From: a virus
Lineage: Duplodnaviria; Heunggongvirae; Uroviricota; Caudoviricetes
Direction: 5' to 3' (one strand)
Length of the DNA stretch: 46,878 bases
Virus record (IMG/VR): IMGVR_UViG_2529292735_000017
This document shows, piece after piece, positions 1-46,197 of the stretch. The number at the start of each line of letters is the position of its first letter. The first letter of the stretch is position 1. The notes beneath the pieces were generated by a model that saw only the letters and a list, made by a program, of their open reading frames with translations, was not told the origin of the DNA and made no database searches. Made by a program: the position numbers and the translations under genes.

Positions 1-1
1 A

Positions 2-15725: not shown

Positions 15726-16154
15726 ATGGGTTTTCGTAGCGCATCAATTCTTACGTTGATTATTAGTGGGATTATTATCGGGTGCACTGATGCTGTATCG
15801 ACAAATTATCATGACCGTACATCATATTACTCCGATAAAGCAATAGAGACACAGTATGTGAGTTCATCTGAACGTACTTCTGATGTTAGTGAGGATATCC
15901 GTCTGTATGCCCATCAAATCAAGAGCGCCATCGAAAAACAGTTCGGGGATGCGAGTAAGTATTCAGGAAAAGAGTGTACACTGAGAATGCATATGGCCCC
16001 GAATGGCCTTCTACTGGAGGTTAAAAGAGAAAGTGGAGACCTCGATTTATGTCGTGAAGCGATGAATGCGATAAAGAATGCTGATATACCTGCCCCCCCT
16101 TCGCCGGAAGTATATAAAGTATTTCAAAATGGGGTGCTGGATTTTAAACCCTGA
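15726..16154 (+). CDS. Lipoprotein with TolA C-terminal (domain III)-like domain
   Basis: Signal peptide with lipobox IIGC; C-terminal …YAHQIKSAIEKQFGDASKYSGKECTLRMHMAPNGLLLEVKRESGDLDLCREAMNAIKNADIPAPPSPEVYKVFQNGVLDFKP closely parallels the remembered E. coli TolA C-terminus. Confidence 0.8.
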   Translation: MGFRSASILTLIISGIIIGCTDAVSTNYHDRTSYYSDKAIETQYVSSSERTSDVSEDIRLYAHQIKSAIEKQFGDASKYSGKECTLRMHMAPNGLLLEVKRESGDLDLCREAMNAIKNADIPAPPSPEVYKVFQNGVLDFKP

Positions 16155-16700: not shown

Positions 16701-17007
16701 CTCTTCAATTACTATATCTCATTCATAGCAAACTGACAGATTTGATGATGTTCTATATACGAAACCTGTGATGTCAAGTCTGAGCTAATACAAATAAACA
16801 TAATATCAGAGAAATACATTTTATTAGCTCGCTACGGCGAGCTTTTTATATTGCATCGTCTCCAGCATATATATCAATTAAGGCTCTGATTGATGTGTCT
16901 GGAAGCCTACACATAATAGACTGGCCCCCTGAATCTCCAGACAACCAATATCACTTAAATAAGTGATAGTCTTAATACTAGTTTTTAGACTAGTCATTGG
17001 AGAGCAG

Positions 17008-17337
17008 ATGATTGATGTCTTAGGACCGGAGAAACGCAGACGGCGTACTACACAGGAAAAGATCGCTATTGTTCAGCAGAGTTTTGAACCGGGAATGACG
17101 GTCTCCCTTGTTGCCCGGCAACACGGTGTGGCAGCCAGCCAGTTATTTCTCTGGCGCAAGCAATACCAGGAGGGAAGTCTTACTGCTGTGGCCGCAGGAG
17201 AGCAGGTCGTTCCTGCCTCTGAACTTGCTGCTGCCATGAAGCAGATTAAGAACTCCAGCGCCTGCTCGGCAAAAAAACGATGGAAAATGAACTCCTTAAA
17301 GAAGCCGTTGAATACGGGCGTGCAAAAAAGTGGATAG
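17008..17337 (+). CDS. insC: IS2 transposase OrfA (InsC), C-terminus apparently frame-altered
   Basis: [41 protein letters not shown]… matches InsC up to …AAMKQIK, then diverges from my recollection, consistent with a 1-nt deletion. Confidence 0.7.
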
Positions 17338-18235
17338 CGCACGCGCCCTTATTGCCCGGGGATGGGGAGTAAGCTTAGTCAGCCGTTGTCTCCGGGTGTC
17401 GCGTGCGCAGTTGCACGTAATTCTCAGACGAACCGATGACTGGAAAGATGGTCGCCGCAGCCGTCACTCAGATGATACGGATGTGCTTCTCCGTATACAC
17501 CATGTTATCGGAGAGCTGCCCACGTATGGTTATCGTCGGGTATGGGCGCTGCTTCGCAGACAGGCCGAACTTGATGGTATGCCTGCGATCAATGCCAAAC
17601 GTGTTTACCGGATCATGCGCCAGAATGCGCTGTTGCTTGAGCGAAAAACCGCTGTACCGCCATCGAAACGGGCACATACTGGCAAAGTGGCCGTGAAAGA
17701 AAGCAATCAACGATGGTGCTCTGACGGGTTCGAGTTCCGCTGTGATAACGGAGAAAAACTGCGAGTCACGTTCGCGCTGGACTGCTGTGACCGTGAGGCA
17801 CTGCACTGGGCAGTCACTACGGGCGGCTTCGACAGTGAAACAGTACAGGACGTAATGCTGGGAGCGGTGGAACGCCGCTTCGGCAACGAGCTTCCGGCGT
17901 CTCCAGTAGAGTGGCTGACGGATAATGGTTCATGCTACCGGGCTAATGAAACACGGCAGTTTGCCCGGATGTTGGGGCTTGAACCGAAGAACACGGCGGT
18001 GCGGAGTCCGGAGAGTAACGGCATAGCAGAGAGCTTCGTGAAAACGATAAAGCGTGACTACATCAGTATCATGCCTAAACCAGACGGGTTAACGGCAGCA
18101 AAGAACCTTGCAGAGGCGTTCGAGCATTATAACGAATGGCATCCGCATAGTGCACTGGGTTATCGCTCGCCACGGGAATATCTGCGGCAGCAGGCCAGTA
18201 ATGGGTTAAGTGATAACAGGTGTCTGGAAATATAG
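17330..18235 (+). CDS. insD: IS2 transposase OrfB (InsD; DDE catalytic domain)
   Basis: 301-aa [26 protein letters not shown]… typical IS3-family OrfB. Confidence 0.85.
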
Positions 18236-18286
18236 GGGCAAATCCACATAATAACTATGCCATCCGTTCCGTGCGGAGGTGAGGCT

Positions 18287-18502: not shown

Positions 18503-18570
18503 TCCAATGACTCAATACTATGAACTGGTTGTGAAAGGAGGTAAGCGTCAACGGAGCACCGTATTGACGC

Positions 18571-18930
18571 TTATTTATTGGTGAGTACTACGTTCCATGG
18601 CAGGAGTTCGTCAACACGGTTGGAGGGCCATTCCGGCAGTACGCTCAGAATATGGCGCAGATACGCTTCCGGATCGATACCGTTCAGTCGGCAGGTGCCG
18701 ATCAGCCCGTACAGCAGTGCTCCACGCTCGCCGCCGTGATCGCTACCGAAGAACACGTAATTTTTCTTTCCGAGACAGACTGCACGAAGCGCTCTTTCCG
18801 CTGTGTTATTGTCCACCTCCGCCAGACCGTCATCACTGTAATAACAGAGGGCGTCCCACTGATTCAGTACATAGCTGAACGCTTCGCCCAGTCTGGATTT
18901 TTTCGACAGCGTGCCATTCTTCTCCACCAT
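18571..18930 (-). pseudogene. IS66 TnpC C-terminal fragment
   Basis: …DNNTAERALRAVCLGKKNYVFFGSDHGGERGALLYGLIGTCRLNGIDPEAYLRHIL… conserved IS66 transposase C-terminus; N-terminal three quarters absent. Confidence 0.75.
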
Positions 18931-18947
18931 CCATTCATGCAGCGACG

Positions 18948-19193
18948 TCAGTAACGCTTTGCTTCGCTGCTGCCTGGCTGCAAGACGCTCTGACTCTGGT
19001 AATCTCCGTATTTCATTCTCGATGGCGTACAGTTCACTTCTCCCCGTCGGCCACGGAAGATAAACAGGTGACCGGAGAAGGGGTTATCATCCAGCACATG
19101 CTGTATCTGCTCCCCCAGACCGTTGAAGGATTTACGCATATCAGTAACGCCGGCAACGAGCCAGATACGGGTACCTGATGGGAGTGAAATCAT
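18948..19193 (-). pseudogene. IS66 orf2 (TnpB) truncated
   Basis: MISLPSGTRIWLVAGVTDMRKSFNGLGEQIQHVLDDNPFSGHLFIFRGRRG then unrelated sequence, marking the deletion junction. Confidence 0.7.
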
Positions 19194-19627
19194 CGTCCCC
19201 TCCCGGTCAGCTCACGGATCAACACCGTGAGCAGCTCTGGTGAAGGATTTTCCAGCATCATTTTACCGTAATGGAATTCCACATGGCAGGAAGCTGCACA
19301 AGCAACTGATAATGCCTCCGGAGCAGGAGCATCTGTAGCACAGCGCGGGGGGTCGATAAGTTCCACTGGAACCAGAGTCGGAGAGGCCGGAAAAGATTGT
19401 GATACTGTAGGGCCTACAATAGTTGGAGGCATTCTACGAGAAATACGTCCTTCTCTTTGCCAGAGGCGTAGCCATTTAAAAATCAGGTTGTTATCAACGC
19501 CATGTTCCCGGGCCAGTTGTGCAACATTGGCATTTGGTTTCGAAGCCAGTTCAACCATATGAAGTTTAAATTCATTAGAAAATATCCGGCGGGTTCCGGA
19601 GCGCCAGTCTGTAGGTTTATCCATCAA
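19190..19627 (-). CDS. IS66-family orf1 (TnpA accessory protein)
   Basis: 145-aa ORF with HTH-like N-terminus, first gene of the IS66 operon. Confidence 0.75.
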   Translation of the reverse strand: MMDKPTDWRSGTRRIFSNEFKLHMVELASKPNANVAQLAREHGVDNNLIFKWLRLWQREGRISRRMPPTIVGPTVSQSFPASPTLVPVELIDPPRCATDAPAPEALSVACAASCHVEFHYGKMMLENPSPELLTVLIRELTGRGR

Positions 19628-19991
19628 TAGAACTCCGTCTAATTTAGAAGGAGCTCTAATTTAGTCTGCAAGGAGCAGGTGTTACAGACGGCATTGGCTT
19701 TACGCTTACGAAAGGAGTCCGTAATTTTGAGAATAAAGTTACGGTAACTGTAGCCTTACAGGACAAAGAACGCTTTGACGGTGAAATTTTTGGCCTGGAT
19801 GTCGCCATGGACCGTGTTGAAGGAGCTGCGCTGGAGTTTTATGAGGCAGCAGCCAGAATGAGCGTCCGGCAAGTCTTCCTGGAAGTAGCAGAAAAATTGT
19901 CAGAAAAAGTTGAGTCTTATCTGCAGCATCAGTACTCCTTTAAGATTGAAAATCCTGCCAATAAGCACGAGCGTCCTCATCATAAATATCT

Positions 19992-21019
<1,028 letters not shown>

Positions 21020-21382
21020 ATTAATATTAAATCGGATTATTTTTAGCGCTGAATGTGAAATTTAAATAAAAAGGACTCTTCCATGAGTCAAAATCCTTGA
21101 AATCTTAAGGGTAAGATAAAAGGTCATTAGACAGAATGACACGTTTTATTAATAAATAAAGCTATTGTTTCATTCGTGTGTTTTTCTTTACAAAAGTAAT
21201 CCTTGCTATGGTTGGTTAATCATGCGTTAATGGTGTTCTGGTTTGTTACAAAATTATCTGAAGCAGTCATTGTTATAATTTTATTATTTGTACCTCTTGA
21301 GATTTCCTTGTTGGTTTTTCTCTCTGATATTTTTTTTCGGACCATTCTGCCCAAGGGCTAACTTCTTCAAAAGGTAATAATG

Positions 21383-21595
21383 ATGTCTAACAAAATGACT
21401 GGTTTAGTGAAATGGTTTAACCCTGAAAAAGGTTTTGGTTTCATCACGCCGAAAGATGGTAGCAAAGATGTGTTTGTGCATTTCTCAGCTATTCAGAGCA
21501 ACGATTTCAAAACGTTAACTGAGAATCAGGAAGTCGAATTTGGTATTGAGAACGGACCTAAAGGCCCTGCAGCTGTTCATGTAGTGGCACTTTGA
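21383..21595 (+). CDS. Cold-shock protein (CspA family)
   Basis: 70 aa [38 protein letters not shown]… with RNP1/RNP2 motifs; long AT-rich 5' leader. Confidence 0.85.
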
Positions 21596-21800
21596 GGTAG
21601 AAAATATTACAAACCATATTCACTTTAGATGCCCGTGTTGCCATGGTTCTCAGTATAGAACATCATCTTTTGATGTTTCTGACAGAAATCCTTTCGGGGC
21701 AAAATGTATCTTTTGTAAATCAATGATGATTACATTTGATAATATTTCACAATACTTAAATGTTAGCCATCTGTCGTTAGATTTAAGAAAGTGAAAATGA

Positions 21801-21823
21801 AGGCTCCTTCGGGAGCTTTTTTG
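21801..21823 (+). terminator. Putative intrinsic terminator
   Basis: GGCTCC-TTCG-GGAGC stem-loop followed by TTTTTT. Confidence 0.4.
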
Positions 21824-21940
21824 CTTAGTGTCTAGTCGATGGATACTCACATATTACGGTAACATTATGAAAAAATAATAGTTTTTTTTAACTCTGAACC
21901 AGCAATGGTAGTGCCAGTGATGACCGGAGTTAACACCATC

Positions 21941-22096
21941 ATGCGTGAATATCCAAATGGCGAAACAACACACCTCACTGTAATGGCTGCAGGGTTTCCA
22001 TCTCTGACCGGAGATCATAAAGTCATTTATGTAGCAGCGGATCGACATGTAACTTCAGAAGAAATTCTGGAAGCAGCAATGAGACTCTTGAATTGA
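21941..22096 (+). CDS. ynfN: YnfN-like small protein
   Basis: 51 aa from internal Met (MREYPNGETTHLTVMAAGFPSLTGDHKVIYVAADRH…); position between csp and gns as in Qin; from memory. Confidence 0.5.
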   Translation: MREYPNGETTHLTVMAAGFPSLTGDHKVIYVAADRHVTSEEILEAAMRLLN

Positions 22097-22265
22097 TTTG
22101 ATTCTAATGCATTGATAATAAATGATAATCATCTTTATCTGTTTGTGTGAAATTTAGACCGTCGTATGTTGATTATTGCGATGTTTCATCTTATCTTTTA
22201 TACGTTTGCTCCATATAATTGACACTACTGTGTACCAGGACAGTCATAACAGACTAAAAGAGGAA

Positions 22266-22442
22266 ATGATGAACATTGAAGAGTTAAAAACAAAAACAGA
22301 AGCAGATATTTCTGAATATATAACAAAAAAAATCATTGAGCTTAAGAAAAAGACCGGGAAAGAAGTTACCAGTATCCAGTTTACTGCACGGGAAAAAATG
22401 ACTGGTCTTGAAAGCTATGATATCAAGATTGATTTAATCTAG
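22266..22442 (+). CDS. gnsB: GnsA/GnsB-family small protein
   Basis: MMNIEELKTKTEADISEYITKKIIELKKKTGKEVTSIQFTAREKMTGLESYDIKIDLI resembles remembered GnsB. Confidence 0.7.
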   Translation: MMNIEELKTKTEADISEYITKKIIELKKKTGKEVTSIQFTAREKMTGLESYDIKIDLI

Positions 22443-22737
22443 CATGTTTATAGTATTAGCATCAATTTCTCATCAGATGCTATTCAACAATACAAATTAC
22501 CCATAAACCTCGTTTTTACGGGGTTTTGTTATATTTAAACATTACTGAATAGATATAAATCTCGATTGTCGATGGTATTGGTTGTGTGACAATACCTAGT
22601 CTTTCCGGTATGCCTGAAGAGAATACAAACGACAGATTATGTAAGGGAAACGCGCTGAAACTTTCACTCTTTCATGCTGAGTGATTTGACGTTATATTTT
22701 TAGCCGCAAGTGAAGAGCAAACGAATGGAGCGACAAA

Positions 22738-22944
22738 ATGCATAAAGATCAATACACTGATGCCCCCTCCCAGGAGCAGGTTCGTGTAAAAACTATGCTT
22801 AATAGCACCATTTCGATGGGTTACCCGGATGTTGTAATTGCATGTATAGAACATCAAGTATCTCTGGAAGCATTCAGGGCAATTGAGGCCGCGTTAGTAA
22901 AGCACGATAAGAATACGAAGGATTATTCCCTGGTGGTTGACTGA
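22738..22944 (+). CDS. Hypothetical small protein
   Basis: 68-aa ORF in AT-rich cargo region; no motif recognised. Confidence 0.4.
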
Positions 22945-23299
22945 TCACCATAACTGCTAACCATTCTGACCATTTCACAAGTGACAGAGTCAATATCGTA
23001 TTCTGTCACTGTAAGGCTAATACAGTACTGCAATTCAACTACAGCAATGCCTCGTATTTAGGTGAATTTACAATATCGTCCAGTTCGGATGCCGGCTGCA
23101 TTTCTGAAGATAAGGCATTTCGGTTCGCGTATTTTCCCCTCATGCTCGTCAGTCCTGCGCGTAGTAAGAAACAGGACACTCACACTAATTTGTGTGGGCA
23201 TGCTGTGATGTCCTTCTGAATTATCCCCATGCCATTATGTAACGCTCTGTTTCAGATGCTCGTCACGGTTGTCAGGCTGTCGGGTCCTCCCAGTGGGGG

Positions 23300-23340
23300 T
23301 CCCTGCCACGGGGCGGGAGCGTCGCGGAAAAAGGCTAGTT
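23300..23340. other. Putative cos site (cosN-like)
   Basis: ACGGGGCGGGAGCGTCGCGGA resembles lambda cosN (ACGGGGCGGCGACCTCGCGGG); 186 bp upstream of the small terminase start, as in lambda; followed by AT-rich region with palindrome CTGTAAT-n-ATTACAG. Confidence 0.45.
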
Positions 23341-23496
23341 TTTGAAATTTCATCCGTCATCACCACTACTGTAATAGATTGATATTACAGTATTTTTATT
23401 TTTGTGGTGTCGATTTTGATTGTTTTTTGTTCATCACTAACACCGTTTGCCTAAAGTCGTTCGCAAGATGCATGTTTAAAACATTCTGGAGCGGGT

Positions 23497-23991
23497 ATGG
23501 ATCGAGAGTTAAAAAATCTGACGCTGAATATCAGTCAATTGGCGGCACTGTCAGGTGTACATCGCCAGACTGCTGCGGCAAGGCTGCAAAATCTACCCGT
23601 TGCAGGGGGGCATGAAAGCAACCTCAAGCTTTATCGGGTGGTTGATATTGTGTCGGCATTTCTGGCATTACCACCGCCGGTTGCAGAAGGCGAAATGGAC
23701 GCACATGAGCGCAAAGCCTGGTATCAGTCTGAACGTGAGCGTCTTAAGTTCGAACAGGAAACGGCACAACTCATTCCGGCCAGTGATGTCAGACGGGAGT
23801 TTGCCATCTGGGCAAAAGCGGTCGTGCAGGTGCTGGAGACATTACCGGATATTCTTGAACGTGACTGCGGTCTGCAGCCTGCCGCTGTGAGCCGTGTTCA
23901 GTCCATTATTGATGATCTGCGCGATCAGGTAGCCCTGCGGGTGACTGAAGCAGGTGCGGATGATGAGGAGGAATTACAGCAGGAGGAGTAA
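23497..23991 (+). CDS. Terminase small subunit (Nu1-like)
   Basis: 164 aa with N-terminal winged-HTH-like segment (…LNISQLAALSGVHRQTAAARLQ…) and acidic C-terminus; directly upstream of large terminase. Confidence 0.75.
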   Translation: MDRELKNLTLNISQLAALSGVHRQTAAARLQNLPVAGGHESNLKLYRVVDIVSAFLALPPPVAEGEMDAHERKAWYQSERERLKFEQETAQLIPASDVRREFAIWAKAVVQVLETLPDILERDCGLQPAAVSRVQSIIDDLRDQVALRVTEAGADDEEELQQEE

Positions 23992-26093
23992 TGCTGAATC
24001 AGGAAACCGCAAAGGCAGCACGAACCGATTCAGGTTATATCCTTCGCGCACCGAGACGAATGCGGGTTGCTGATGCCGTTGCTCAGTATATGCGGGTGCC
24101 CATGGGGGCAGGGAACTCAGTCCCATGGGATCCGCTGGTGGCACCGTATGTTATTGAGCCTATGAACTGCCTGGCCTCGCGTGAATACGACGCAGTGATA
24201 TTTGTTGGCCCGGCACGAACCGGCAAGACTATCGGCCTGATTGACGGCTGGGTGATTTACAACGTGATTTGCGATCCTGCTGATATGCTGATCATTCAGA
24301 TGACGGAGGAAAAAGCCCGCGAACACTCCAAAAAACGACTCGCCAGAACGTTTCGCGTCAGCCCGGAAGTGGTCAGTCGCCTGAGTCCGAACAAAAATGA
24401 CAACAACGTTTATGACAGAACATTCCTTGCTGGCAACTACCTGAAAATCGGCTGGCCGTCAGTCAATATCATGTCTTCATCAGATTATAAATGCGTGGCG
24501 CTGACGGATTATGACCGTTTTCCGGAAGATATTGATGGTGAGGGGGATGCCTTCTCTCTTGCCTCAAAACGTACCACCACATTTATGTCCAGTGGTATGA
24601 CGCTGGTGGAGAGTTCCCCCGGCAGGGATGTGAAGGATGTGAAATGGCGACGGACTTCACCGCATGAGGCTCCACCAACCACGGGGATCCTGTCGCTCTA
24701 TAACCGTGGCGATCGCCGTCGCTGGTACTGGCCCTGTCCACACTGTGGTGAGTATTTTCAGCCCTGCGGCGATGTGGTTGCTGGTTTCCGTGATATTGCC
24801 GATCCTGTGCTGGCAAGTGAGGCGGCTTATATTCAGTGTCCTTCCTGTTCAGGACGGATTTTGCCTGAACAAAAACGCGAGCTGAACGGACGTGGGGTCT
24901 GGTTACGGGATGGTGAATCCATCAATGCAGATGGCAGTCGTTATGGTGATCCCCGGCGTTCACGTATTGCGTCATTCTGGATGGAGGGTCCGGCAGCTGC
25001 TTATCAGACACTCTCGCAACTCGTTTACAAACTGCTTACTGCAGAACAGGAATACGAGACAACCGGAAGTGAAGAGACACTCAAGACGGTTATCAATACC
25101 GACTGGGGATTACCTTATCTTCCCCGCGCCAGCATGGAGCAACGAAAAAGTGAATTGCTTGAGCAGCGGGCAGAGCCAGTTCCTTCCCGCAGTGTGCCGG
25201 ATGGCGTTAATTTCCTTGTGGCGACAGTGGATGTGCAGGCGGGACGTCATCGCCGTTTTGTGGTTCAGGTAACGGGCTATGGCAGCCGTGGCGAACGCTG
25301 GATTATTGATCGTTACAACATCACGCAGTCATTGCGCGGTGACAGCGACGGGGAGAGCCAGCGAATTGATCCGGCCAGCTATCCGGAAGACTGGGATGTC
25401 CTGCTGACGGATGTTTTTCATAAAAGCTGGCCGCTGGCCTCCGACCCTTCTCAACAAATGCGACTGATGGCAATGGCGGTGGACTCCGGCGGTGAAGACG
25501 GGGTCACTGATAATGCCTATAAATTCTGGCGTCGTTGCCGTCGTGATGGCCTTGGTAAACGTATTTACCTGTTTAAGGGCGACAGCATCCGGCGAGCAAA
25601 ACTGATCACCCGTACATTCCCTGATAACACCGGACGAACGGGCCGACGGGCGCAGGCCGCAGGTGATGTGCCGCTCTGGCTTCTTCAGACGGATGCCCTG
25701 AAAGACCGGGTGAATAACGCGTTATGGCGTGACTCGCTAGGTCCCGGCTATGTGCATTTCCCTGACTGGCTGGGGAGCTGGTTTTACGACGAACTGACGT
25801 ATGAAGAGCGGAGCAGTGACGGGAAATGGAGTAAGCCGGGTCGCGGTGCCAACGAAGCTTTTGACCTGATGGTGTATGCCGAGGCTCTGGTCATTCTGCA
25901 TGGATACGAAAAGATCCGCTGGCCGGATGCACCGGAGTGGGCGAGCCGGGAAACCTGGCTGGAGTGTGTCCCGGACAGTACCGAACCGTCACCCTCACCG
26001 GAACCGGTACCCACGCCTGTTAAAAAACAAAAACGGAAGAAAACAGTAACTGACGATGTTAACCCCTGGCTGACTTCCGGAGGATGGTTATGA
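23991..26093 (+). CDS. Terminase large subunit (gpA-like)
   Basis: 700 aa; Walker A-like VGPARTGKT; cysteine cluster CPHCGEYF…CPSCSG; typical size and position. Confidence 0.9.
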   Translation: MLNQETAKAARTDSGYILRAPRRMRVADAVAQYMRVPMGAGNSVPWDPLVAPYVIEPMNCLASREYDAVIFVGPARTGKTIGLIDGWVIYNVICDPADMLIIQMTEEKAREHSKKRLARTFRVSPEVVSRLSPNKNDNNVYDRTFLAGNYLKIGWPSVNIMSSSDYKCVALTDYDRFPEDIDGEGDAFSLASKRTTTFMSSGMTLVESSPGRDVKDVKWRRTSPHEAPPTTGILSLYNRGDRRRWYWPCPHCGEYFQPCGDVVAGFRDIADPVLASEAAYIQCPSCSGRILPEQKRELNGRGVWLRDGESINADGSRYGDPRRSRIASFWMEGPAAAYQTLSQLVYKLLTAEQEYETTGSEETLKTVINTDWGLPYLPRASMEQRKSELLEQRAEPVPSRSVPDGVNFLVATVDVQAGRHRRFVVQVTGYGSRGERWIIDRYNITQSLRGDSDGESQRIDPASYPEDWDVLLTDVFHKSWPLASDPSQQMRLMAMAVDSGGEDGVTDNAYKFWRRCRRDGLGKRIYLFKGDSIRRAKLITRTFPDNTGRTGRRAQAAGDVPLWLLQTDALKDRVNNALWRDSLGPGYVHFPDWLGSWFYDELTYEERSSDGKWSKPGRGANEAFDLMVYAEALVILHGYEKIRWPDAPEWASRETWLECVPDSTEPSPSPEPVPTPVKKQKRKKTVTDDVNPWLTSGGWL

Positions 26094-26302
26094 ATCAGAA
26101 TGATATTGAAGCCATGATTCAGCGTTATACGGAAGCTGAAATGGCGGTGCTGGACGGAAAATCCGTCACTTTTAATGGTCAGCAGATGACCATGGAAAAC
26201 TTATCTGAGATCCGGCAGGGGCGGCAGGAGTGGGAGCGCCGCCTTGCGGCTCTGATTACACGACGACGGGGGCATCCCGGGTACCGGCTGGCGAGGTTCT
26301 GA
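26090..26302 (+). CDS. Head-tail joining protein (gpW-like)
   Basis: About 70 aa; ATGA overlap with terminase stop; position between terminase and portal. Confidence 0.55.
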   Translation: MNQNDIEAMIQRYTEAEMAVLDGKSVTFNGQQMTMENLSEIRQGRQEWERRLAALITRRRGHPGYRLARF

Positions 26303-27810
26303 TGGCAATTCTTGATGATGTGATTGGCGTTTTTTCACCAGGATGGAAAGCGGCAAGGCTGCGTTCCCGTGCGGTGATCCAGGCTTATGAGGCCGTAAAA
26401 ACGACGCGGACACACAAAGCCCGACGGGAGAACCGAACTGCCGACCAGTTAAGCCAGTACGGGGCCGTGTCGTTACGTGAGCAGGCTCGTTACCTTGATA
26501 ACAACCACGATCTGGTCATTGGTGTATTTGACAAGCTGGAAGAACGGGTGGTGGGGAAAAACGGGATTATTGTCGAGCCACATCCGGTATTACGCAATGG
26601 GGCCATTGCCCGTGATCTGGCAGCGGAGATACGTACCCGATGGAGTGAATGGTCTGTCAGTCCGGAGGTCACCGGGCAGTTTACCCGTCCGATGCTGGAA
26701 CGTCTGATGCTGCGTACCTGGCTGCGCGATGGTGAGGTGTTTGCCCAGATGGTTTCCGGGCGCATAAACAGCCTGACGCCTTCTGCCGGTGTTCATTTCT
26801 GGCTGGAGGCGCTCGAGCCGGACTTTATTCCCATGACCAGTGATGAGAGCAACAGGCTGAATCAGGGCGTGTTTGTTGATGACTGGGGGCGTCCCGAAAA
26901 ATATCTGGTGTATAAAAGCCGTCCCGTATCCGGGCGGCAGATGGAAACCAAAGAAGTGGATGCAGAGCGAATGCTGCATCTTAAATTTGTTCGCCGTCTG
27001 CACCAGATGCGCGGGACGTCTTTGTTGTCCGGTGTGCTGATCCGCCTCAGTGCTCTGAAAGAGTATGAAGATTCTGAGCTGACTGCAGCAAGGATCGCCG
27101 CTGCTCTGGGGATGTACATCCGGAAAGGCGACGGACAGAGCTATGAAACGGATGGTAATGACAGCAAGGAGAATGAACGCGAGCTTACCATTCAGCCAGG
27201 CATTATTTACGACGATCTGAAACCCGGCGAAGAAATCGGAATGGTGAAGTCGGATCGCCCCAATCCTAACCTTGAAACTTTTCGTAATGGTCAGTTGCGT
27301 GCCGTGGCTGCGGGCAGTCGTCTGAGTTTTTCCAGTACAGCGCGCAACTATAACGGCACTTACAGCGCCCAGCGTCAGGAGCTGGTTGAATCTACTGATG
27401 GCTACCTGATCCTGCAGGACTGGTTTATTGGTGCCGTCACCCGCCCGATGTACCGTGCCTGGCTGAAACAGGCTGTGGTATCCGGTGTTATCAGGCTACC
27501 CCGCGATCTGGACCGATCTTCACTGTATACCGCGGTGTATTCCGGACCGGTGATGCCGTGGATTGACCCTGTTAAGGAGGCTGAGGCCTGGAAAATTCAG
27601 ATTCGTGGTGGAGCGGCGACAGAATCAGACTGGGTACGTGCAGGTGGTCGTAATCCAGATGATGTCAAACGTCGGCGCAAGGCCGAAATTGATGAAAACC
27701 GCAAGCTGGATCTGGTATTTGATACCGATCCGGCCAGTGATAAAGGAGGCAGCAGTGCCGCAACGAAACGACAGGAGCCGCAGCACACCGACGACCAGTC
27801 CGAAGAATAA
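26302..27810 (+). CDS. Portal protein (gpB-like)
   Basis: About 500 aa from Met at 26302; position and size; acidic C-terminus. Confidence 0.85.
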   Translation: MAILDDVIGVFSPGWKAARLRSRAVIQAYEAVKTTRTHKARRENRTADQLSQYGAVSLREQARYLDNNHDLVIGVFDKLEERVVGKNGIIVEPHPVLRNGAIARDLAAEIRTRWSEWSVSPEVTGQFTRPMLERLMLRTWLRDGEVFAQMVSGRINSLTPSAGVHFWLEALEPDFIPMTSDESNRLNQGVFVDDWGRPEKYLVYKSRPVSGRQMETKEVDAERMLHLKFVRRLHQMRGTSLLSGVLIRLSALKEYEDSELTAARIAAALGMYIRKGDGQSYETDGNDSKENERELTIQPGIIYDDLKPGEEIGMVKSDRPNPNLETFRNGQLRAVAAGSRLSFSSTARNYNGTYSAQRQELVESTDGYLILQDWFIGAVTRPMYRAWLKQAVVSGVIRLPRDLDRSSLYTAVYSGPVMPWIDPVKEAEAWKIQIRGGAATESDWVRAGGRNPDDVKRRRKAEIDENRKLDLVFDTDPASDKGGSSAATKRQEPQHTDDQSEE

Positions 27811-27823
27811 TTCTTGGTTCAGG

Positions 27824-29781
27824 ATGCAGGCAGGTCACCAGAGTGACGCGGATATTTATATTTATGACGAGATTGGTTTCTGGGGTGTTACGGCGAAGCA
27901 GTTTATCAGTGATCTGAATGCACTGGGCGATATCACCCACATTAATCTCCATATTAATTCACCGGGTGGCGATGTCTTTGAAGGCATCGCCATTTTTAAT
28001 GCACTGAAAACACATGGTGCGTCCATTACCGTTTATGTCGACGGTGTGGCGGCGTCAATGGCGTCGGTCATTGCGATGGTGGGAAACCCGGTCATTATGC
28101 CGGAAAACTCCTTCATGATGATTCATAAACCATTTGGCTTTACGGGCGGTGATGCGGAGGACATGCGCACCTATGCCGACCTGCTCGATAAAGTTGAGGC
28201 GGTTCTGTTACCCGCTTATGCACAGAAAACCGGGAAACCACCGATGAAATTGCTGCCATGCTGGCGGATGAGACCTGGATGTCCGGTGCCGAATGTCTGG
28301 CACAGGGATTTGCTGATCAGGTGACACCAGCCGTTAAGGCAATGGCATGTATTCAGTCAAAACGTACAGAGGAATTTAAAAAGATGCCGGAATCCATTCG
28401 AAATATGATTACTCCGCCACGCAACAGTGCTCCACGCGTACAGGATGATGGACCTGCAGCCTCCCGGACGCCAGTGCAGGCAGCAGCACCCGTGGTGGAT
28501 GAAAACAGCATCCGTGCGCAGGTCCTGGCAGAGCAAAAAGCGCGTGTAAACGGTATTAATGATCTGTTTGCCATGTTTGGCGGGCGTTATCAGTCGTTGC
28601 AGGCTCAGTGTCTTGCCGATCCTGAATGTTCGCTGGAGCAGGCCCGCGAAAAGCTGTTGAACGAGATGGGGCGCGAGTCCACGCCATCCAATAAAAATAC
28701 CCCGGCTCATATTTATGCCGGTAACGGTAATTTTGTGGGGGACGGGATCCGCCAGGCGCTGATGGCGCGCGCCGGGTTTGAAAAAACTGAACGTGATAAT
28801 GTCTACAACGGGATGACCCTGCGTGAATATGCCCGTATGTCACTGACTGAACGTGGTATTGGTGTTTCCAGTTATAACCCGATGCAGATGGTCGGTGCGG
28901 CGTTCACACACAGTACGTCTGACTTCGGTAATATTCTGCTGGATGTTGCGAACAAAGCCATTCTGCAGGGCTGGGAAGATGCCCCTGAAACCTATGAACA
29001 GTGGACGCGGAAAGGTCAGTTGTCTGATTTTAAAATTGCCCATCGTGTGGGTATGGGGGGCTTCAGTGCTCTGCGTCAGGTGCGTGAAGGGGCAGAATAT
29101 AAATACGTCACCACCGGAGATAAACAGGCCACTATTGCACTGGCGACCTATGGCGAGCTGTTCAGTATCACCCGTCAGGCCATTATCAATGATGATCTGA
29201 ATATGCTGACCGATGTCCCGATGAAGCTGGGCCGTGCGGCGAAATCCACTATTGCCGATCTGGTTTATGCCATTCTGACGTCTAACCCGAAAATCTCCAC
29301 AGATAATGTAAGTCTGTTCGATAAAGCGAAACATGCAAACGTACTGGAGAGCGCGGCAATGGACGTGGCATCGCTGGATAAAGCCCGCCAGTTGATGCGC
29401 GTTCAGAAAGAGGGTGAGCGTCATCTGAATATTCGTCCTGCGTTCGTACTGGTACCGACGGCGATGGAGTCTGTTGCTAACCAGGTCATTCGCTCCTCAA
29501 GTGTCAAGGGGGCTGACATTAACGCCGGTATTATTAACCCGGTGAAAGATTTTGCGACCGTTATTGCAGAGCCTCGTCTTGATGATAACAGCCAGACCAC
29601 CTTCTACCTGGCTGCGTCCAAAGGCTCCGATACGATTGAAGTGGCTTATCTCAACGGTGTGGATACGCCATATATTGATCAGATGGAGGGCTTCAGTGTG
29701 GATGGCGTGACAACGAAAGTGCGTATTGACGCTGGTGTTGCGCCAGTTGATCACCGCGGCCTGGTGAAATGTACGGCGTAA
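27824..29781 (+). CDS. Prohead protease (ClpP/S49-like)-scaffold-major capsid fusion; requires a frame change near 28232-28240
   Basis: ORF 27824-28324 has a ClpP-like core (…INSPGGDVFEG…SMASVIAMVGNPVIMPENSFMMIHKP…); ORF in the -1 frame (to 29781) continues the protease C-terminus, then capsid-like sequence; junction at A-run GGGAAACC. Confidence 0.7.
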
Positions 29782-29804
29782 ACGTCGCAGACAACAACTC
29801 TGAT

Positions 29805-29825
29805 GGCCCGTAAGGGCTTTTTTTG
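29805..29825 (+). terminator. Intrinsic terminator after capsid gene
   Basis: GGCCC-GTAA-GGGCT stem-loop followed by TTTTTTT. Confidence 0.5.
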
Positions 29826-29867
29826 TACCTGAAATCAGCCCCTGAACGGGGCTGTGCGGAGACAGTT

Positions 29868-30191
29868 ATGGCAAAGAATTTTGTAGAAGAAGGAAAAACG
29901 GTGGCGATTGTTGCCAGTGCAGCCATCAGCAGCGGAGATCTGGTGCAGGTGGGTGATGTTTTTGCGGTGGCGCTGACCGATATTCCACAGGGAGAAACAG
30001 GCGACGGCATAACCGAAGGTGTGTTTATGCTGCCTAAGCTGAAAACGGATGACATGAAAACGGGTAAGAAGGTTTATCTGAAGTCAGGAAAAGTTCAGCT
30101 GACTAACAGCGGCTCTGATCCGCTGGTCGGGGTTGTATGGGCAGATGCCGGAACCAGTGTAGAAGAAGTGCCGGTAAAACTCAATGTCTGA
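29868..30191 (+). CDS. Small head-associated protein (possible decoration/DUF2190-like)
   Basis: 107 aa from ATG at 29868; positional inference only. Confidence 0.45.
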   Translation: MAKNFVEEGKTVAIVASAAISSGDLVQVGDVFAVALTDIPQGETGDGITEGVFMLPKLKTDDMKTGKKVYLKSGKVQLTNSGSDPLVGVVWADAGTSVEEVPVKLNV

Positions 30192-32648: not shown

Positions 32649-32986
32649 CGCGGGAAATGCAGTTTGTCATGCGGCTTGCCCGGGAGTTCCGGCGGGCAGA
32701 CTGGCGGCGGATGCTGTCGGAAATGTCGGCCACTGAGCTTGGTGAGTGGGGCGATTATTTCCGGATGCAGAGCTTCAGTGATGTGTGGATGGATGCGCAG
32801 TTTGCCTCGCTGAAGGCATTGATCGTGAGAATGGTGTCCGGCAGCAGTGATGCTGCGGTGGCTGATTTCAGCCTTTTACCGGAAGAGAACGGGATACCGG
32901 AGCGAACGGACGAAGAACTGATGCATCTTGGGGAAGGTATTTCCGGAGGTGTGCGTTATGGACCAGATAGCCAACCTGGTCATTGA
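32259..32986 (+). CDS. Tail assembly chaperone G-T fusion via programmed -1 frameshift
   Basis: -1 frame is open only from 32624 and runs to 32986 overlapping the G stop; candidate slip site CCGGAAAAG (32634-32642). Confidence 0.55.
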
Positions 32987-35900
32987 TTTGGGGATTGATG
33001 CGGCAGAGTTTAAAAATGAAATTCCCCGTATCAAAAACCTTCTGAATGGTGCAGCCAGCGATGCAGAACGGTCTTCTGCCCGTATGCAGCGTTTTATGGA
33101 GCGTCAGACTCAGGCCGCCCGGCAGACAACGCAGGCAGCTTCTTCGGCTGCAACAGCCGCATCCGTCCATGCGCAGACGGTGGAGAAGAACGCACAGGCT
33201 CATGAACGCATGGCCCGCGAGGTGGAGAAAACCCGCCAGCGCATGGAGGCACTGAGCCAGAAAATGCGCGAGGAACAGGCGCAGGCCATGGCTCTGGCGG
33301 AGGCTCAGGATAAAGCGGCTGCTGCGTTTTATCGTCAGATTGACAGTGTGAAACAGGCCAGTGCGGGGCTGCAGGAATTACAGCGTATTCAGCAGCAGAT
33401 CCGACAGGCCAGAAACAGTGGCGGGATTGGTCAGCAGGATTATCTGGCGCTGATTTCTGAGGTTACTGCGAAAACCCGTGTTCTTACACAGGCTGAGGAA
33501 GAGGCTACCCGACAGAAAGTGGCGTTTATCCGTCAGCTTAAAGAGCAGGCAACCCGCCTGAATCTTTCATCTTCTGAGTTGCTTCGTGCTAAGGCAGCCC
33601 AGCTGGGGGTAAGCAGTGCTGCAGAAGTGTATATCCGCAAAATGGAGCAGGCAGGAAAAGCCACGCATTCGCTGGGTCTGAAAAGTGCAGCAGCCCGCCA
33701 GGAGATAGGCGTTCTGATAGGTGAACTGGCCCGCGGCAATTTAGGGGCGCTGAGGGGATCCGGGATAACGCTGGCTAACCGTGCCGGATGGATAGACACA
33801 CTGATGTCACCGAAAGGCATGATGCTTGGCGGGGTTATTGGCGGTATTGCCGCGGCCGTCTATGGTCTGGGTAAAGCCTGGTATGACGGTCAGAAGGAGG
33901 GGGAAGAATTTAACCGCCAGTTGTCGCTGACGGGGCATTATGCCGGAGTCACTGCCGGGCAGCTGTGGACGCTCAGTCGTGCTATTTCCGGGAATGGTAT
34001 CACGCAACATGCTGCAGCCGGTGCGCTGGCTCAGGTGGTGGGGAGTGGTGCATTTCGTGGAAACGATATCGGTATGGTGGCGAGAGCTGCCGCACAGATG
34101 GAGCGATCGGTTGGCCAGTCGGTCAGCGATACCATAAATCAGTTTAAGCGGCTGAAGGATGATCCTGTAAATGCCGCGAAGGCTCTGGACAATGAGCTGC
34201 ATTTTCTTACTGCCACTCAGCTTGAGCAGATACGCGTCCTTGGGGAGCAGGGGCGGTCCAGTGATGCTGCACGGATAGCCATGTCTGCACTGGCAGAGGA
34301 AACCGGTCGGCGTACTGCGGATATTGATAATAACCTCAATGCGCTTGGCAGTACGCTGAAGTATCTGTCTGATTTGTGGAGTCGTTTCTGGGATGCGGCC
34401 ATGAATATTGGTCGTGAAGACTCGCTGGATGAACAGATTGCCGCTTTACAGGAGAAAGTGTCGCGGGCGAAAAGACTCCCCTGGACGGCATCATCTTCTC
34501 AGGTTGAATACGATCAGCAGCGTCTTAACGATCTTCAGGAGAAAAAACGCCAGAAGGATTTGCAGGATGCAAAAGAGCAGGCAGAGCGGAATTATCAGGA
34601 GCAACAGAAACGCCGTAATGCTGAAAATGCTGCACTGAACCGGATGAATGAAACGGAAGCAGCACGACATCAGCGTGAAATTGCGCGTATTAATGCCATG
34701 CAGTACGCCGATCAGGCTGTCAGGGATGCGGCGATACAACGTGAAAATGAACGTTACGAGAAAGCCCTGGCATCCGGTAAGAAAAAAACACGCGAAACCC
34801 GTAATGATGAGGCCACCCGGTTATTGCTGCAGTACAGTCAGCAACAGGCACAGGTGGAAGGACAGATTGCTGCTGCCAGACAGTCAGCAGGCATTGCCAC
34901 GGAAAGGATGACAGAAGCGCATAAACAGCTTCTGGCTCTGCAGCAGCGCATCAGCGACCTGGACGGGAAAAAACTGACGGCAGATGAAAAGAGTGTGCTG
35001 GCCCGTAAAGATGAACTGATTCAGGCACTGACGCTGCTGGATGTAAAACAGCAGGAGCTTCAGAAACAGACGGCACTCAACGAGCTGAAGAAAAAACAAT
35101 TCAGCTGACCAGTCAACTGGCTGAAGAAGAGCGCGCTCAGCGTCAGCAACATGACCTGGATATCGCCACGGTGGGTATGGGTGATCAGCAGCGACAGCGA
35201 TATCAGGTACAACTGAGTCTTCGCCAGAAATACCAGCAACAGCTGGAGCAGTTGAGGCGGGATAGTGAGCAGAAAGGGACATATAACACGGATGACTACA
35301 GAAAGGCCGAGCAGGCGCTGACGGAGAGCCTGAACCGACAACTGAATGAGAATCGCCGTTACTGGCAACAGCTTGAAGTTGTGCAGGGTAACTGGAAAAA
35401 CGGAGTCCTGCGTGCATTTCAGGATTTTACCGTGGATGCAGATAATACGGCAGAAACAGCAGAACAGGTGTTCTCGTCAGCCTTCAGCAACATGGGAAAT
35501 GGCCTGGCAACTTTTGTCACTACCGGCAAACTCAATTTCAAATCCTTCACCTCTTCTGTGCTGTCAGATATGGCGAAAATCCTGGCGCAGGCAACCATGA
35601 TGAAATCGATAAAAGGGATTGGCAGTGTACTGGGATTTGATCTCAGCAGCCTTTCCCTGAATGCCAATGGGGGGATTTATCAGTCTGCTGATTTGAGTCG
35701 TTACAGTGGCACGGTGGTTAACCGTCCGACGTTTTTTGCTTTTGCAAAAGGCGCGGGTGTGATGGGGGAAGCGGGACCTGAAGCCATTCTGCCATTGCGT
35801 CGTGGTGCTGACGGTAAGCTGGGGGTTGTGGCGGATATTGGGGGTTCAGGTATGGCGATGTTTTCCCCGCAGTACAACATCGAGATCAATAACGATGGCA

Positions 35901-36022
35901 CGAACGGGCAGATAGGTCCGGCTGCCCTGAAGGTGGTTTATGACCTTGGGAAAAAAGCGGCAGCGGACTTTATGCAACAGCAGGCCCGTGATGGTGGTCG
36001 GTTAAGTGGAGCATATCGGTAA
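32958..36022 (+). CDS. H: Tail tape measure protein H; reading frame interrupted in an A6 tract at 35091-35096
   Basis: Coiled-coil N-terminal two thirds to a stop at 35108; -1 frame continues with a gpH-like C-terminus (…GGIYQSADLS…RPTFFAFAKGAGVMGEAGPEAILPL…) to 36022. Confidence 0.75.
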
Positions 36023-41896: not shown

Positions 41897-42496
41897 ATGC
41901 GTAAACTTTATGCCGCCATTTTTTCCGCAGCCATTTGTCTGGCCGTATCCGGTGCGCCTGCATGGGCATCTGAACATCAGTCCACGCTGAGCGCGGGGTA
42001 TCTTCATGCCTCGACGAACGTTCCCGGCAGCGATGATCTTAACGGGATTAACGTGAAATACCGTTATGAGTTTACGGACACACTGGGGATGGTGACGTCG
42101 TTCAGCTATGCAGGAGACAAGAATCGCCAGCTGACCCGTTACAGCGATACCCGCTGGTATGAAGATTCCGTGCGTAACCGCTGGTTCAGCGTGATGGCGG
42201 GGCCGTCTGTACGCGTGAATGAATGGTTCAGCGCGTATGCGATGGCGGGTGTGGCTTACAGCCGTGTGTCGACTTTCTCCGGGGATTATCTCCGCGTAAC
42301 TGACAATAAGGGGAAAACGCACGATGTGCTAACCGGAAGTGATGACGGTCGCCACAGCAACACGTCTCTGGCTTGGGGGGCTGGCGTGCAGTTTAACCCG
42401 ACCGAGTCCGTGGCCATTGATGTCGCTTATGAAGGTTCCGGCAGTGGCGACTGGCGCACTGACGGTTTCATCGTGGGTGTCGGTTATAAATTCTGA
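41897..42496 (+). CDS. lom: Outer-membrane beta-barrel protein Lom (Ail/Lom family)
   Basis: Signal peptide then alternating beta-strand pattern; C-terminal …GFIVGVGYKF; position after J as in lambda. Confidence 0.85.
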   Translation: MRKLYAAIFSAAICLAVSGAPAWASEHQSTLSAGYLHASTNVPGSDDLNGINVKYRYEFTDTLGMVTSFSYAGDKNRQLTRYSDTRWYEDSVRNRWFSVMAGPSVRVNEWFSAYAMAGVAYSRVSTFSGDYLRVTDNKGKTHDVLTGSDDGRHSNTSLAWGAGVQFNPTESVAIDVAYEGSGSGDWRTDGFIVGVGYKF

Positions 42497-42522
42497 TTAG
42501 CCAGGTAACACAGTGTTATGAC

Positions 42523-42549
42523 AGCCCGCCGGTTCAGGCGGGCTTTTTT
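42523..42549 (+). terminator. Intrinsic terminator after lom
   Basis: AGCCCGCC-ggttca-GGCGGGCT stem-loop followed by TTTTTT. Confidence 0.55.
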
Positions 42550-42554
42550 GTGGG

Positions 42555-45500
42555 GTGAATATGGCAGTAAAGATTTCAGGTGTACTGAAAGACGGCACAG
42601 GAAAACCGGTACAGAACTGCACAATCCAGCTGAAAGCAAAACGTAACAGTACCACTGTGGTGGTGAACACGCTGGCCTCAGAAAATCCGGATGAAGCCGG
42701 GCGTTACAGTATGGACGTTGAGTACGGTCAGTACAGCGTTATTCTGTTGGTGGAGGGATTCCCGCCGTCACATGCCGGGACCATCACCGTGTATGAAGAT
42801 TCTCAACCCGGTACGCTGAATGATTTTCTCGGTGCCATGACGGAGGATGATGCCCGTCCGGAGGCACTGCGACGTTTTGAACTGATGGTGGAAGAGGTGG
42901 CGCGTAACGCGTCCGCGGTGGCACAGAACACGGCAGCCGCGAAGAAGTCAGCCAGCGATGCCAGCACATCAGCCCGTGAGGCGGCAACCCATGCGACTGA
43001 TGCTGCAGGCTCAGCACGCGCAGCCAGCACGTCAGCCGGACAGGCCGCGTCGTCGGCTCAGTCAGCGTCTTCCAGCGCAGGAACGGCATCAGCAAAGGCC
43101 ACTGAAGCATCAAAAAGTGCTGCCGCTGCAGAGTCCTCAAAAAGCGCGGCGGCTACCAGTGCCGGTGCGGCGAAAACGTCAGAAACGAATGCGGCAGCGT
43201 CACAACAATCAGCAGCCACTTCTGCATCCACCGCGACCACGAAAGCGTCAGAAGCAGCCACCTCAGCCCGGGATGCGGCGGCCTCAAAAGAGGCAGCGAA
43301 ATCATCAGAAACGAACGCATCCTTGAGCGCCAGTAGCGCAGCTTCCTCGGCAACGGCGGCAGGAAATTCCGCGAAGGCGGCAAAAACGTCCGAGACGAAC
43401 GCCAGGTCTTCTGAGACGGCAGCGGGACAGAGCGCCTCAGCTGCGGCAGGCTCAAAAACAGCGGCTGCGTCATCTGCCAGTGCCGCGTCAACAAGTGCCG
43501 GGCAGGCCTCAGCCAGTGCCACCGCCGCCGGAAAATCGGCAGAAAGCGCCGCATCATCCGCTTCAACAGCCACAACGAAGGCTGGCGAAGCCACTGAGCA
43601 GGCCACGGCAGCAGCGAGGTCAGCTTCCGCAGCGAAGACATCCGAAACGAACGCGAAAGCGTCGGAAACCCGTGCAGAATCCTCAAAAACGGCCGCGGCA
43701 TCGTCCGCCAGTTCGGCGGCGTCATCGGCATCATCGGCGTCTGCTTCAAAAGATGAGGCGACCAGACAGGCGTCAGCAGCGAAGGGCAGCGCCACGACGG
43801 CATCCACGAAGGCGACAGAGGCTGCTGGTAGTGCGAAGGCAGCAGCTCAGAGCAAAAGTACGGCGGAATCTGCAGCAACGCGCGCTGAGACAGCGGCAAA
43901 ACGGGCAGAGGATATTGCATCCGCCGTGGCGCTTGAGGATGCGAGCACGACGAAAAAGGGGATAGTACAGCTCAGTAGTGCGACTAACAGCACTTCCGAG
44001 TCACTGGCGGCAACACCAAAAGCCGTTAAGGCCGCGTATGACCTGGCTAGCGGGAAATACACCGCACAGGATGCAACGACAGCACAGAAAGGGATAATCC
44101 AGCTAAGCAGCGCGACCAACAGCACGTCTGAAACGCTGGCCGCGACACCAAAGGCAGTAAAAGCAGCCAATGACAATGCTGAGAAACGTCTGCAGAAAGA
44201 TCAGAACGGTGCGGATATCCCTGGCAAAGACACCTTTACGAAAAATATTGGTGCCTGCCGTGCCTTCGGTGGGTCAGTAAGCACAACAACAGGAAACTGG
44301 ACGACTGCACAGTTTATCGAGTGGCTGGATTCTCAGGGAGCATTTAACCATCCCTACTGGATGTGCAAGGGTTCCTGGTCTTATGGCAATAATAAAATCA
44401 TTACTGATACTGACTGCGGTAATATTCATCTCGCCGGAGCTGTCATTGAAGTAATGGGGATAAAATCAGCGATGACGATCCGCATTACCACACCGACCAC
44501 CTCCACTGGTGGTGGAACAACTAACGCCCAGTTTACCTATATTAATCACGGAACAGATTATTCACCTGGCTGGCGAAGGGACTATAACTCCAGAAATAAG
44601 CCAACGGCATCAGAGATCGGGGCGTTACCGTCAGGTGGAACAGCAGTATCATCAGTTAATCTGTCTTCAAAAGGTCGGGTAACCGCGCTGACAGACAATA
44701 CGCAGGGGGCAACAGGTCTTGAGTTATACGAGGTGTATAACAACGGATATCCAACAGCGTATGGAAATATCATTCACCTGAAAGGGATGACAGCCGTTGG
44801 CGAAGGTGAGTTACTCATCGGCTGGAGTGGTACAAGCGGTGCTCATGCTCCGGCATTTATTCGTTCACGACGGGATACGACCGACGCAAACTGGTCGCCG
44901 TGGGCGCAGCTTTACACCTCGGCTCATCCTCCTGCAGAGTTTTATCCAGTCGGTGCACCAATCCCGTGGCCATCAGATACCGTTCCGTCTGGCTATGCCC
45001 TGATGCAGGGGCAGACTTTTGACAAATCTGCATACCCGAAACTTGCAGCCGCTTATCCGTCAGGCGTGATCCCTGATATGCGTGGCTGGACGATTAAGGG
45101 CAAACCTGCCAGTGGTCGGGCCGTATTGTCTCAGGAACAGGACGGCATTAAATCGCACACCCACAGCGCCAGCGCATCCAGTACGGATTTGGGGACGAAA
45201 ACCACATCGTCGTTTGATTACGGCACTAAATCCACGAATAACATCGGGGCGCATACGCACAGTGTGAGCGGTACAGCCGCAAGTGCCGGAAACCATACTC
45301 ATAGTGTCACAGGCGCATCAGCAGTCAGCCAGTGGTCACAAAATGGGTCAGTACATAAGGTAGTGTCTGCGGCCAGTGTGAATACAAGTGCTGCAGGAGC
45401 GCACACTCATAGTGTCAGCGGCACAGCTGCATCTGCAGGTGCTCACGCACATACTGTCGGTATTGGTGCTCATACGCACTCGGTTGCGATTGGCTCACAT

Positions 45501-45587
45501 GGACACACCATCACCGTTAACGCTGCTGGTAACGCGGAAAACACCGTCAAAAACATCGCATTTAACTATATTGTGAGGCTTGCATAA
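42555..45587 (+). CDS. stf: Side tail fibre protein (Stf-like) with Ala/Ser-rich repeats and C-terminal His-rich HxH repeats
   Basis: 1010 aa; long low-complexity repeat region (…AAKTSETNA… units), and C-terminal HTHS/HAHT/HGHT repeats typical of receptor-binding tips. Confidence 0.85.
42930..43910 (+). repeat. Ala/Ser/Thr-rich imperfect tandem repeat region within stf
   Basis: Recurring motifs [24 protein letters not shown](S/G)EAT in the translation; generates long antisense shadow ORFs. Confidence 0.6.
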
Positions 45588-46171
45588 TGGCATTCAGAAT
45601 GAGTGAACAACCACGGACCATAAAAATTTATAATCTGCTGTCCGGAACTAATGAATTTATTGGTGAAGGTGATGCATATATTCCGCCTCATACAGGTCTG
45701 CCAGCAAACAGTACCGATATTGCACCGCCAGATATTCCGGCTGGTTTCGTGGCTGTTTTCAACAGTGATGAGTCATCGTGGCATCTCGTTGAAGATCATC
45801 GGGGTAAAACGGTTTATGACGTGGCTTCCGGCGACGCGTTATTTATTTCTGAACTCGGCTCATTACCGGAAAATGTCACCTGGTTATCCCCGGAAGGGGA
45901 GTTTCAGAAGTGGAACGGCACAGCCTGGGTGAAGGATACGGAAGCAGAAAAACTGTTCCGGATCCGGGAGGCGGAAGAAACAAAAAACAGCCTGATGCAG
46001 GTAGCCAGTGAGCATATAGCGCCGCTTCAGGATGCTGTAGATCTGGAAATCGCAACGGAGGAAGAAACCTCATTGCTGGAAGCCTGGAAAAAATATCGGG
46101 TGTTGCTGAACCGTGTTGATACATCAACTGCACCTGATATTGAGTGGCCTACGAACCCTGTCAGGGAGTAA
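45587..46171 (+). CDS. tfa: Tail fibre assembly protein (Tfa)
   Basis: 194 aa; ATGA overlap with stf stop; typical position. Confidence 0.85.
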
Positions 46172-46197
46172 TCATTGGGATTATGCCGCAGCACGTC

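Follow-up and report, generated by a model that had tools for sequence, protein, structure and literature searches.

A one-base frame break in the protease/scaffold/capsid fusion gene of an Escherichia coli prophage is probably a homopolymer error in a draft assembly

The window, i.e., the whole stretch of 46,878 nucleotides that was analysed, corresponds to positions 39044-85921 of contig AIHM01000042.1 (offset 39043) and reaches up to the contig end. Its source assembly, GCA_000250455.2, is a 2012 draft from the E. coli DECA collection, to which accessions AIHA-AIHS belong (PMC3558956). The window holds a lambdoid prophage with a head module, in which the genes for the terminase (23991-26093), a small adaptor protein and the portal (26302-27810) are followed by the ATG of the head gene at 27824. 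As seen over window positions 1-1297 and 46149-46878, the prophage lies at a Qin-type site; in near-identical assemblies the integrase adjoins a rspB/rspA-like gene pair, and ydfJ is found beyond the far prophage end in strain 20Ec-P-124. The window ends with the contig in the tail-fibre/tfa region, and the right attachment site is therefore outside it. Substitutions relative to the nearest relatives cluster at 42373-46149, in the tail-fibre and fibre-assembly genes, with 61 over 42373-45260 and 25 in the 731 nt at 45419-46149. Judging from this distribution, the region looks like a recombinational mosaic, with near-identity elsewhere.

Two insertion sequences, an IS2 copy and an IS66-type remnant, are inserted with the late regulatory region on one side and the genes for lysis and the head on the other (Table 1). 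At the site of the latter, a contig of a sibling DECA assembly (AIGT, L150) carries approximately 1372 bp more, including a 537-aa transposase, and the sibling assembly AIHL (L151) likewise extends further into the element; the short form found in the window is either a real internal deletion or an assembly repeat collapse. The tolA-like gene upstream of IS2 contains a C-run at 16087-16093, which is C7 in the window and in phage mEp460_ev081 and C6 in the complete genome of 20Ec-P-124, whose copy of the gene is annotated by PGAP as frameshifted; finished genomes, too, therefore differ in homopolymer length.

Table 1. Features of the window discussed in the text, in order of position.
Feature	Position in the window	Strand	Basis
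IS2 copy of 1330 bp in the late operon, flanked by a 5-bp target duplication (CATAA), with the tolA-like gene on one side and the holin gene essD on the other	16917-18246
Fourth single-A deletion, AAA to AA at ~17247, in orfA of the inserted IS2	17240-17255	+	comparison with sibling DECA contig
IS66-family element or remnant, 1169 bp, with an 8-bp target duplication (GAAAGGAG), inserted in ydfR (DUF1327)	18541-19709
Third single-A deletion, A7 to A6, at the start of ynfN (ATGAAAAAAATAA to ATGAAAAAATAA)	21870-21875	+	alignment
ClpP-like prohead protease/scaffold/major capsid fusion gene, interrupted	27824-29781	+	repaired translation, NF045540, Pfam
5' fragment of the fusion gene: 137 authentic protease residues and a 29-residue out-of-frame tail	27824-28324	+	translation
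-1 frame: protease C-terminus, scaffold segment and HK97-fold capsid domain	28198-29781	+	translation, NF045540
A-run one base short: AAA in the window, AAAA in all relatives	28235-28237	+	alignment
Second single-A deletion, A7 to A6, in the tape-measure gene (32958-36022)	35091-35096	+	alignment

When one A was added to the shortened A-run of the interrupted head gene, translation gave a protein of 652 amino acids that is identical at every position (652/652) to the mEp460_ev081 major head protein. In profile searches, this repaired protein matched NF045540 with 984 bits, the cut-off being 475, over profile positions 2-651 of 652, and matched NF045542, the ClpP-related head maturation protease domain, with 217 bits over positions 1-165 of 165. 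In addition, Pfam places CLP_protease at residues 23-168 and Phage_capsid_4 (PF25209) at residues 354-649 (E = 6e-55) of the repaired protein. Phages mEp460, mEp460_ev081, cdtI, Ayreon and others have one ORF of 1,959 nt at the same position, and the name given by PGAP to the gene in E. coli genomes is 'ClpP-like prohead protease/major capsid protein fusion protein'. As encoded in the window, the two pieces score separately against NF045540, the 5' piece with 225 bits, which is below the cut-off, and the 3' piece with ~733 bits.

Read from its ATG, the ClpP-like frame encodes the protease through ...LLPAYAQKTGK, continues with PPMKLLPCWRMRPGCPVPNVWHRDLLIR, which are the out-of-frame residues, and ends at TGA 28322-28324. 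Of the 165 positions of the Clp_rel_HeadMat profile, this 5' fragment matches no more than 1-135, the break thus lying inside the protease domain. The -1 frame, which opens after a TGA at 28195-28197, contains TTDEIAAMLADETWMSGAECLAQGFADQV and stops at 29779-29781; within it, the ORF starting from ATG 28258 (507 aa) covers profile positions 139-651 of NF045540. Window positions 28232-28239 read GGGAAACC, as opposed to GGGAAAACC in every aligned relative, and in an alignment of the window with four related phages the missing A was the single difference at the break. Judged from these alignments, the break is a 1-nt deletion relative to an otherwise identical gene, and not a chance pattern. The first-pass annotation had described the gene as a ClpP-like protease/scaffold/capsid fusion, a description borne out by the NF045540 match and the Pfam domains, and had ended the protease frame at 28324 and opened the -1 frame at 28198, as translation confirms. 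Its proposal that one restored A in the A-run joins the two halves holds as well, the repaired protein being identical to the head protein of mEp460_ev081, and the alignment to related intact fusion genes that it had recommended found those relatives in frame.

The frequency of the broken state was evaluated in several sequence collections. A 34-mer with the A3 run had 0 matches in the GTDB species-representative genomes and 0 matches in the IMG/VR viral contigs, whereas at least 120 viral contigs contained the 35-mer with A4. A 71-nt query spanning the break matched 1,855 complete-genome E. coli records, with 0 exact matches to the A3 version, and 1,851 of these 1,855 records were at 95-99% identity to the query, as expected from one extra base. 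The two-ORF arrangement for which the first-pass annotation had allowed in homologues was found in none of them (0/1,855). Moreover, the 166-aa truncated protease was matched exactly on just one contig, AIHM01000042.1, among the 153 billion gene positions covered. In the collections searched, the A3 state is a singleton.

The break in the head gene is accompanied by other changes of the same kind. As a reference for the indel scan we used mEp460_ev081, the nearest phage, with ~99.97% identity outside the tail-fibre mosaic. Relative to it, the window contains exactly three single-base indels, all of them deletions in A-runs (28234, 35090 and 21869), and the same three A-run deletions were seen against the independent complete genome of strain 20Ec-P-124. 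The deletion in the tape-measure gene splits it into pieces of 716 and 281 aa; its A6 variant was matched by 2 of 1,808 complete-genome records, and the 716-aa fragment is on record for AIHM01000042.1 only. At the start of ynfN (21862-21875), the window sequence reaches a stop after two codons, and this A6 variant has an exact match in at most 2 of 538 complete-genome records. The length of the ynfN A-run is, to judge from the loci compared, either variable or often miscalled, because only the sibling DECA assembly AIHL shares A6 with the window, the other relatives having A7 or A8. A 63-aa ynfN-derived ORF, considered as a marker of the A6 allele, was rejected, as it is called in 2,002 blocks whatever the allele.

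The fourth deletion lies in orfA of the inserted IS2, where the AIGT sibling contig has AAA and an orfA product called at 121 aa, as compared to 80 aa in the window; the AA variant has an exact match in at most 1 of 2,992 records. Further breaks had been considered on the basis of gene-length differences (DUF968, 315 vs 349 aa; RusA, 82 vs 118 aa), but the DNA alignments contain no indels and the differences come down to start-codon calls. The single private substitution in the window is at 30160, which is T in the window and C in 89 other loci. It alters a DUF2190/Phage_cement_2 protein (gene 29868-30191), and the resulting 107-aa protein is recorded for AIHM01000042.1 only. Lying away from homopolymers, this substitution is either a real private mutation or a consensus error of another kind. 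Substitutions at 13653 and 14958 are common to the clonal relative DADSNS010000028.1, hence not private.

The key comparison was made with contigs having the same IS66-type insertion junction, kinship being judged by DNA alignment across the junction. A 62-aa DUF1327 ORF was rejected as a marker of the insertion, since contigs that lack the insertion have the same ORF call. Relatives with the same junction show 0-2 substitutions relative to the window over ~10 kb and have an intact head gene. Among them, PGBJ01000060.1 begins inside the IS66 element and shows 0 substitutions relative to window positions 19611-29994 (10,386 nt), with homopolymer indels only, and its head gene is intact (675 aa). 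The head gene is also intact (652 aa) in the sibling DECA contig AIHL01000045.1. Of the A-run deletions of the window, this contig has only the one in ynfN (A6), and it carries two homopolymer deletions that are private to it (T8 to T7, and GG to G). DADSNS010000028.1 (GCA_017760385.1) shows 1 difference from the window over 15,284 nt and ends at the IS2 insertion site. As for the left part of the window, the Logan contig of SRR099102 shows 0 differences in ~6.0 kb except for a gap where that contig ends, and that of SRR099103 shows 0 differences in 1.9 kb. Based on these alignments, GCA_017760385.1, SRR099102 and SRR099103 are probably the same clone as the window, and the two SRA runs, which are early ones, may come from the sequenced strain itself or from a sibling.

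Overall, the AIHL sibling carries three homopolymer deletions and the window four single-A deletions. Over these two DECA assemblies, single-base indels amount to 1.14 per 10 kb, as compared to 0.10 per 10 kb in non-DECA assemblies (ratio 10.9, P = 0.002), the latter rate being derived from 192 kb of near-identical prophage sequence, mainly from the early region of the prophage. Ten non-DECA assemblies, each with a 14.2-kb stretch near-identical to the phage reference, contain 0 homopolymer indels, and two others (L147 and L152) contain one homopolymer difference each.

Altogether, these results suggest, as a statistical call, that the break in the head gene is probably a homopolymer error of sequencing or assembly in the draft. 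An error of this type would be recognised by a change in the length of a mononucleotide run private to one assembly, and by an excess of the same type of change elsewhere in that assembly and in its sibling, and the head-gene deletion shows both. The real strain would then most likely read GGGAAAACC, and encode one uninterrupted 652-aa polyprotein of the Gifsy-2/mEp460 type, predicted to consist of a ClpP-like prohead protease, a scaffold and the major capsid protein; the deletions in the window would have been introduced by sequencing or consensus calling rather than by mutation in the bacterium. One report (PMC3491183) describes 454 Titanium reads and Celera assemblies that the same centre published in the year of the DECA draft, for which this is circumstantial. 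Nevertheless, several observations speak against an error: a run of A4 is short for a pyrosequencing undercall, the private substitution at 30160 is atypical of homopolymer error, and the single homopolymer differences in L147 and L152 indicate that such changes also happen, or are miscalled, in other assemblies.

It is also conceivable, though in our estimate unlikely, that the deletion is a genuine and very recent inactivating mutation, by which replication slippage lost one A of A4 and left the head gene as a true pseudogene in one strain. Real decay is plausible, and each of the four deletions, taken by itself, may be real. The late operon is already interrupted by the IS2 and IS66-type insertions, which are common to clonal relatives, and selection on the head gene is therefore probably relaxed; since the IS elements probably make the prophage defective, real frameshifts would be tolerated. 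Moreover, natural frameshifts are most often homopolymer deletions, the non-homopolymer substitution at 30160 indicates that some private changes may be real, and rare A6 variants of the tape-measure gene do exist in two complete genomes. However, the head gene is intact in relatives that share the IS66 junction and differ by so few substitutions, which leaves very little time for such a mutation to have occurred. In addition, with three or four 1-nt deletions and one substitution that are private to it, the window is far from a natural indel-to-substitution ratio assumed to be ~1:10, the probability of at least three indels among four events being 0.004 at a natural indel share of 0.1, and 0.027 at 0.2. 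Furthermore, the AIHL sibling, from the same project, has different private homopolymer deletions, which points to the data rather than to the lineage. A sequencing or assembly indel is clearly more likely than a real mutation, because four near-unique single-A deletions stand against one private substitution, and because the clonal relatives and the sibling are intact. The first-pass annotation had put forward three alternatives, namely an inactivating mutation, a sequencing or assembly indel and, less likely, a programmed event: the indel is the one favoured here, the mutation ranks clearly below it, and the programmed event is all but excluded.

This last alternative would restore the full fusion by -1 ribosomal frameshifting or transcriptional slippage at GGGAAAC, either programmed or at least leaky enough to be useful. 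The sequence GGG AAA C does lie within a 127-nt overlap of the two frames, and a -1 slip after AAA would give the exact wild-type ...GKTTDE...; the 90 nt downstream fold at -28 kcal/mol (a value obtained with no shuffle control), but relatives that are in frame have these 90 nt too, and the fold therefore carries no information. Against this, the homologues are all in frame, as described above for the E. coli records and for the viral and species collections, and there is thus nothing for a frameshift to bypass. The codons of the upstream frame are ACC GGG AAA CCA, which is not the X XXY YYZ register, and slippage would have to re-pair GGG to CGG and AAA to GAA; inspection by eye of 28198-28324 found no slippery heptamer in the correct register. 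The A3 run is also far below the approximately 9 or more A/T needed for transcriptional slippage, and the flanks are identical in the in-frame relatives, which argues that no frameshifting element evolved at the site. Because the homologues are all in frame and a slippery site is absent, a programmed frameshift is effectively excluded, and we regard it as highly improbable; as a conserved mechanism it is refuted by the comparison with the homologues.

Many phages, including HK97, have separate protease and capsid genes. A functional split gene, in which a truncated protease and a scaffold-capsid protein from ATG 28258 replace the fusion, is the least probable reading of all, and to our mind barely credible: the downstream 507-aa ORF is above the NF045540 cut-off (~732 bits), but the break costs the protease domain its last ~30 positions, the ATG lies 64 nt upstream of the protease stop with no Shine-Dalgarno-like sequence before it, and the split arrangement is in no other record searched. 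There is likewise very little to be expected from a combined case, in which a real and recent deletion would be attended by some full-length polyprotein, through low-level -1 slippage of tRNA-Lys at G-AAA-C, or by separate protease and scaffold-capsid products. If such a residual or split product did accompany a real deletion, the strain would offer a natural experiment on whether head assembly can do without the Gifsy-2-type fusion. Taken together, anything programmed or functional at this site has a very slight likelihood at best.

The frame break is most likely not biological, and it has no bearing on open questions of phage biology. Its importance is mainly one of clean annotation: unless the reads are checked, neither the head gene nor the tape-measure gene nor IS2 orfA should be scored as a pseudogene, and the breaks should not be taken as evidence for a defective head module. 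Were the deletion real, it would merely be one more lesion in an IS-disrupted prophage.

Among known systems, the programmed -1 frameshift of the lambda G/GT tail chaperone takes place at the site G GGA AAG. The window resembles sites of this type in having a GGGAAA motif in an overlap of the 0 and -1 frames, but it differs from them in that its codon register does not suit tandem slippage, conservation of the two-frame arrangement is lacking, and the missing A alone creates the motif in the window. The likeness to homopolymer errors of the pyrosequencing type is in the single-base run deletions, several per contig and found in the sibling as well, which are missing in otherwise identical relatives; unlike such errors, the run in the head gene has only 4 bases and all four events are in A-runs on one strand. 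As for the gene itself, it is of a well-known type: fused protease and coat genes, of the 'tripartite capsid gene' type, are described for Salmonella phage Gifsy-2 (Effantin et al. 2010, cited in PMC12315714 and PMC8538268). With the Gifsy-2/mEp460-type fusion, the window shares the gene order (terminase, head-tail adaptor, portal, fusion gene and cement-type protein). Every relative examined has the fusion as a single uninterrupted ORF, unlike the window, with its early stop and change of frame. The sole difference found is that the frame of the window is broken at profile position 136-139, and once one A is restored the match to NF045540 runs from end to end.
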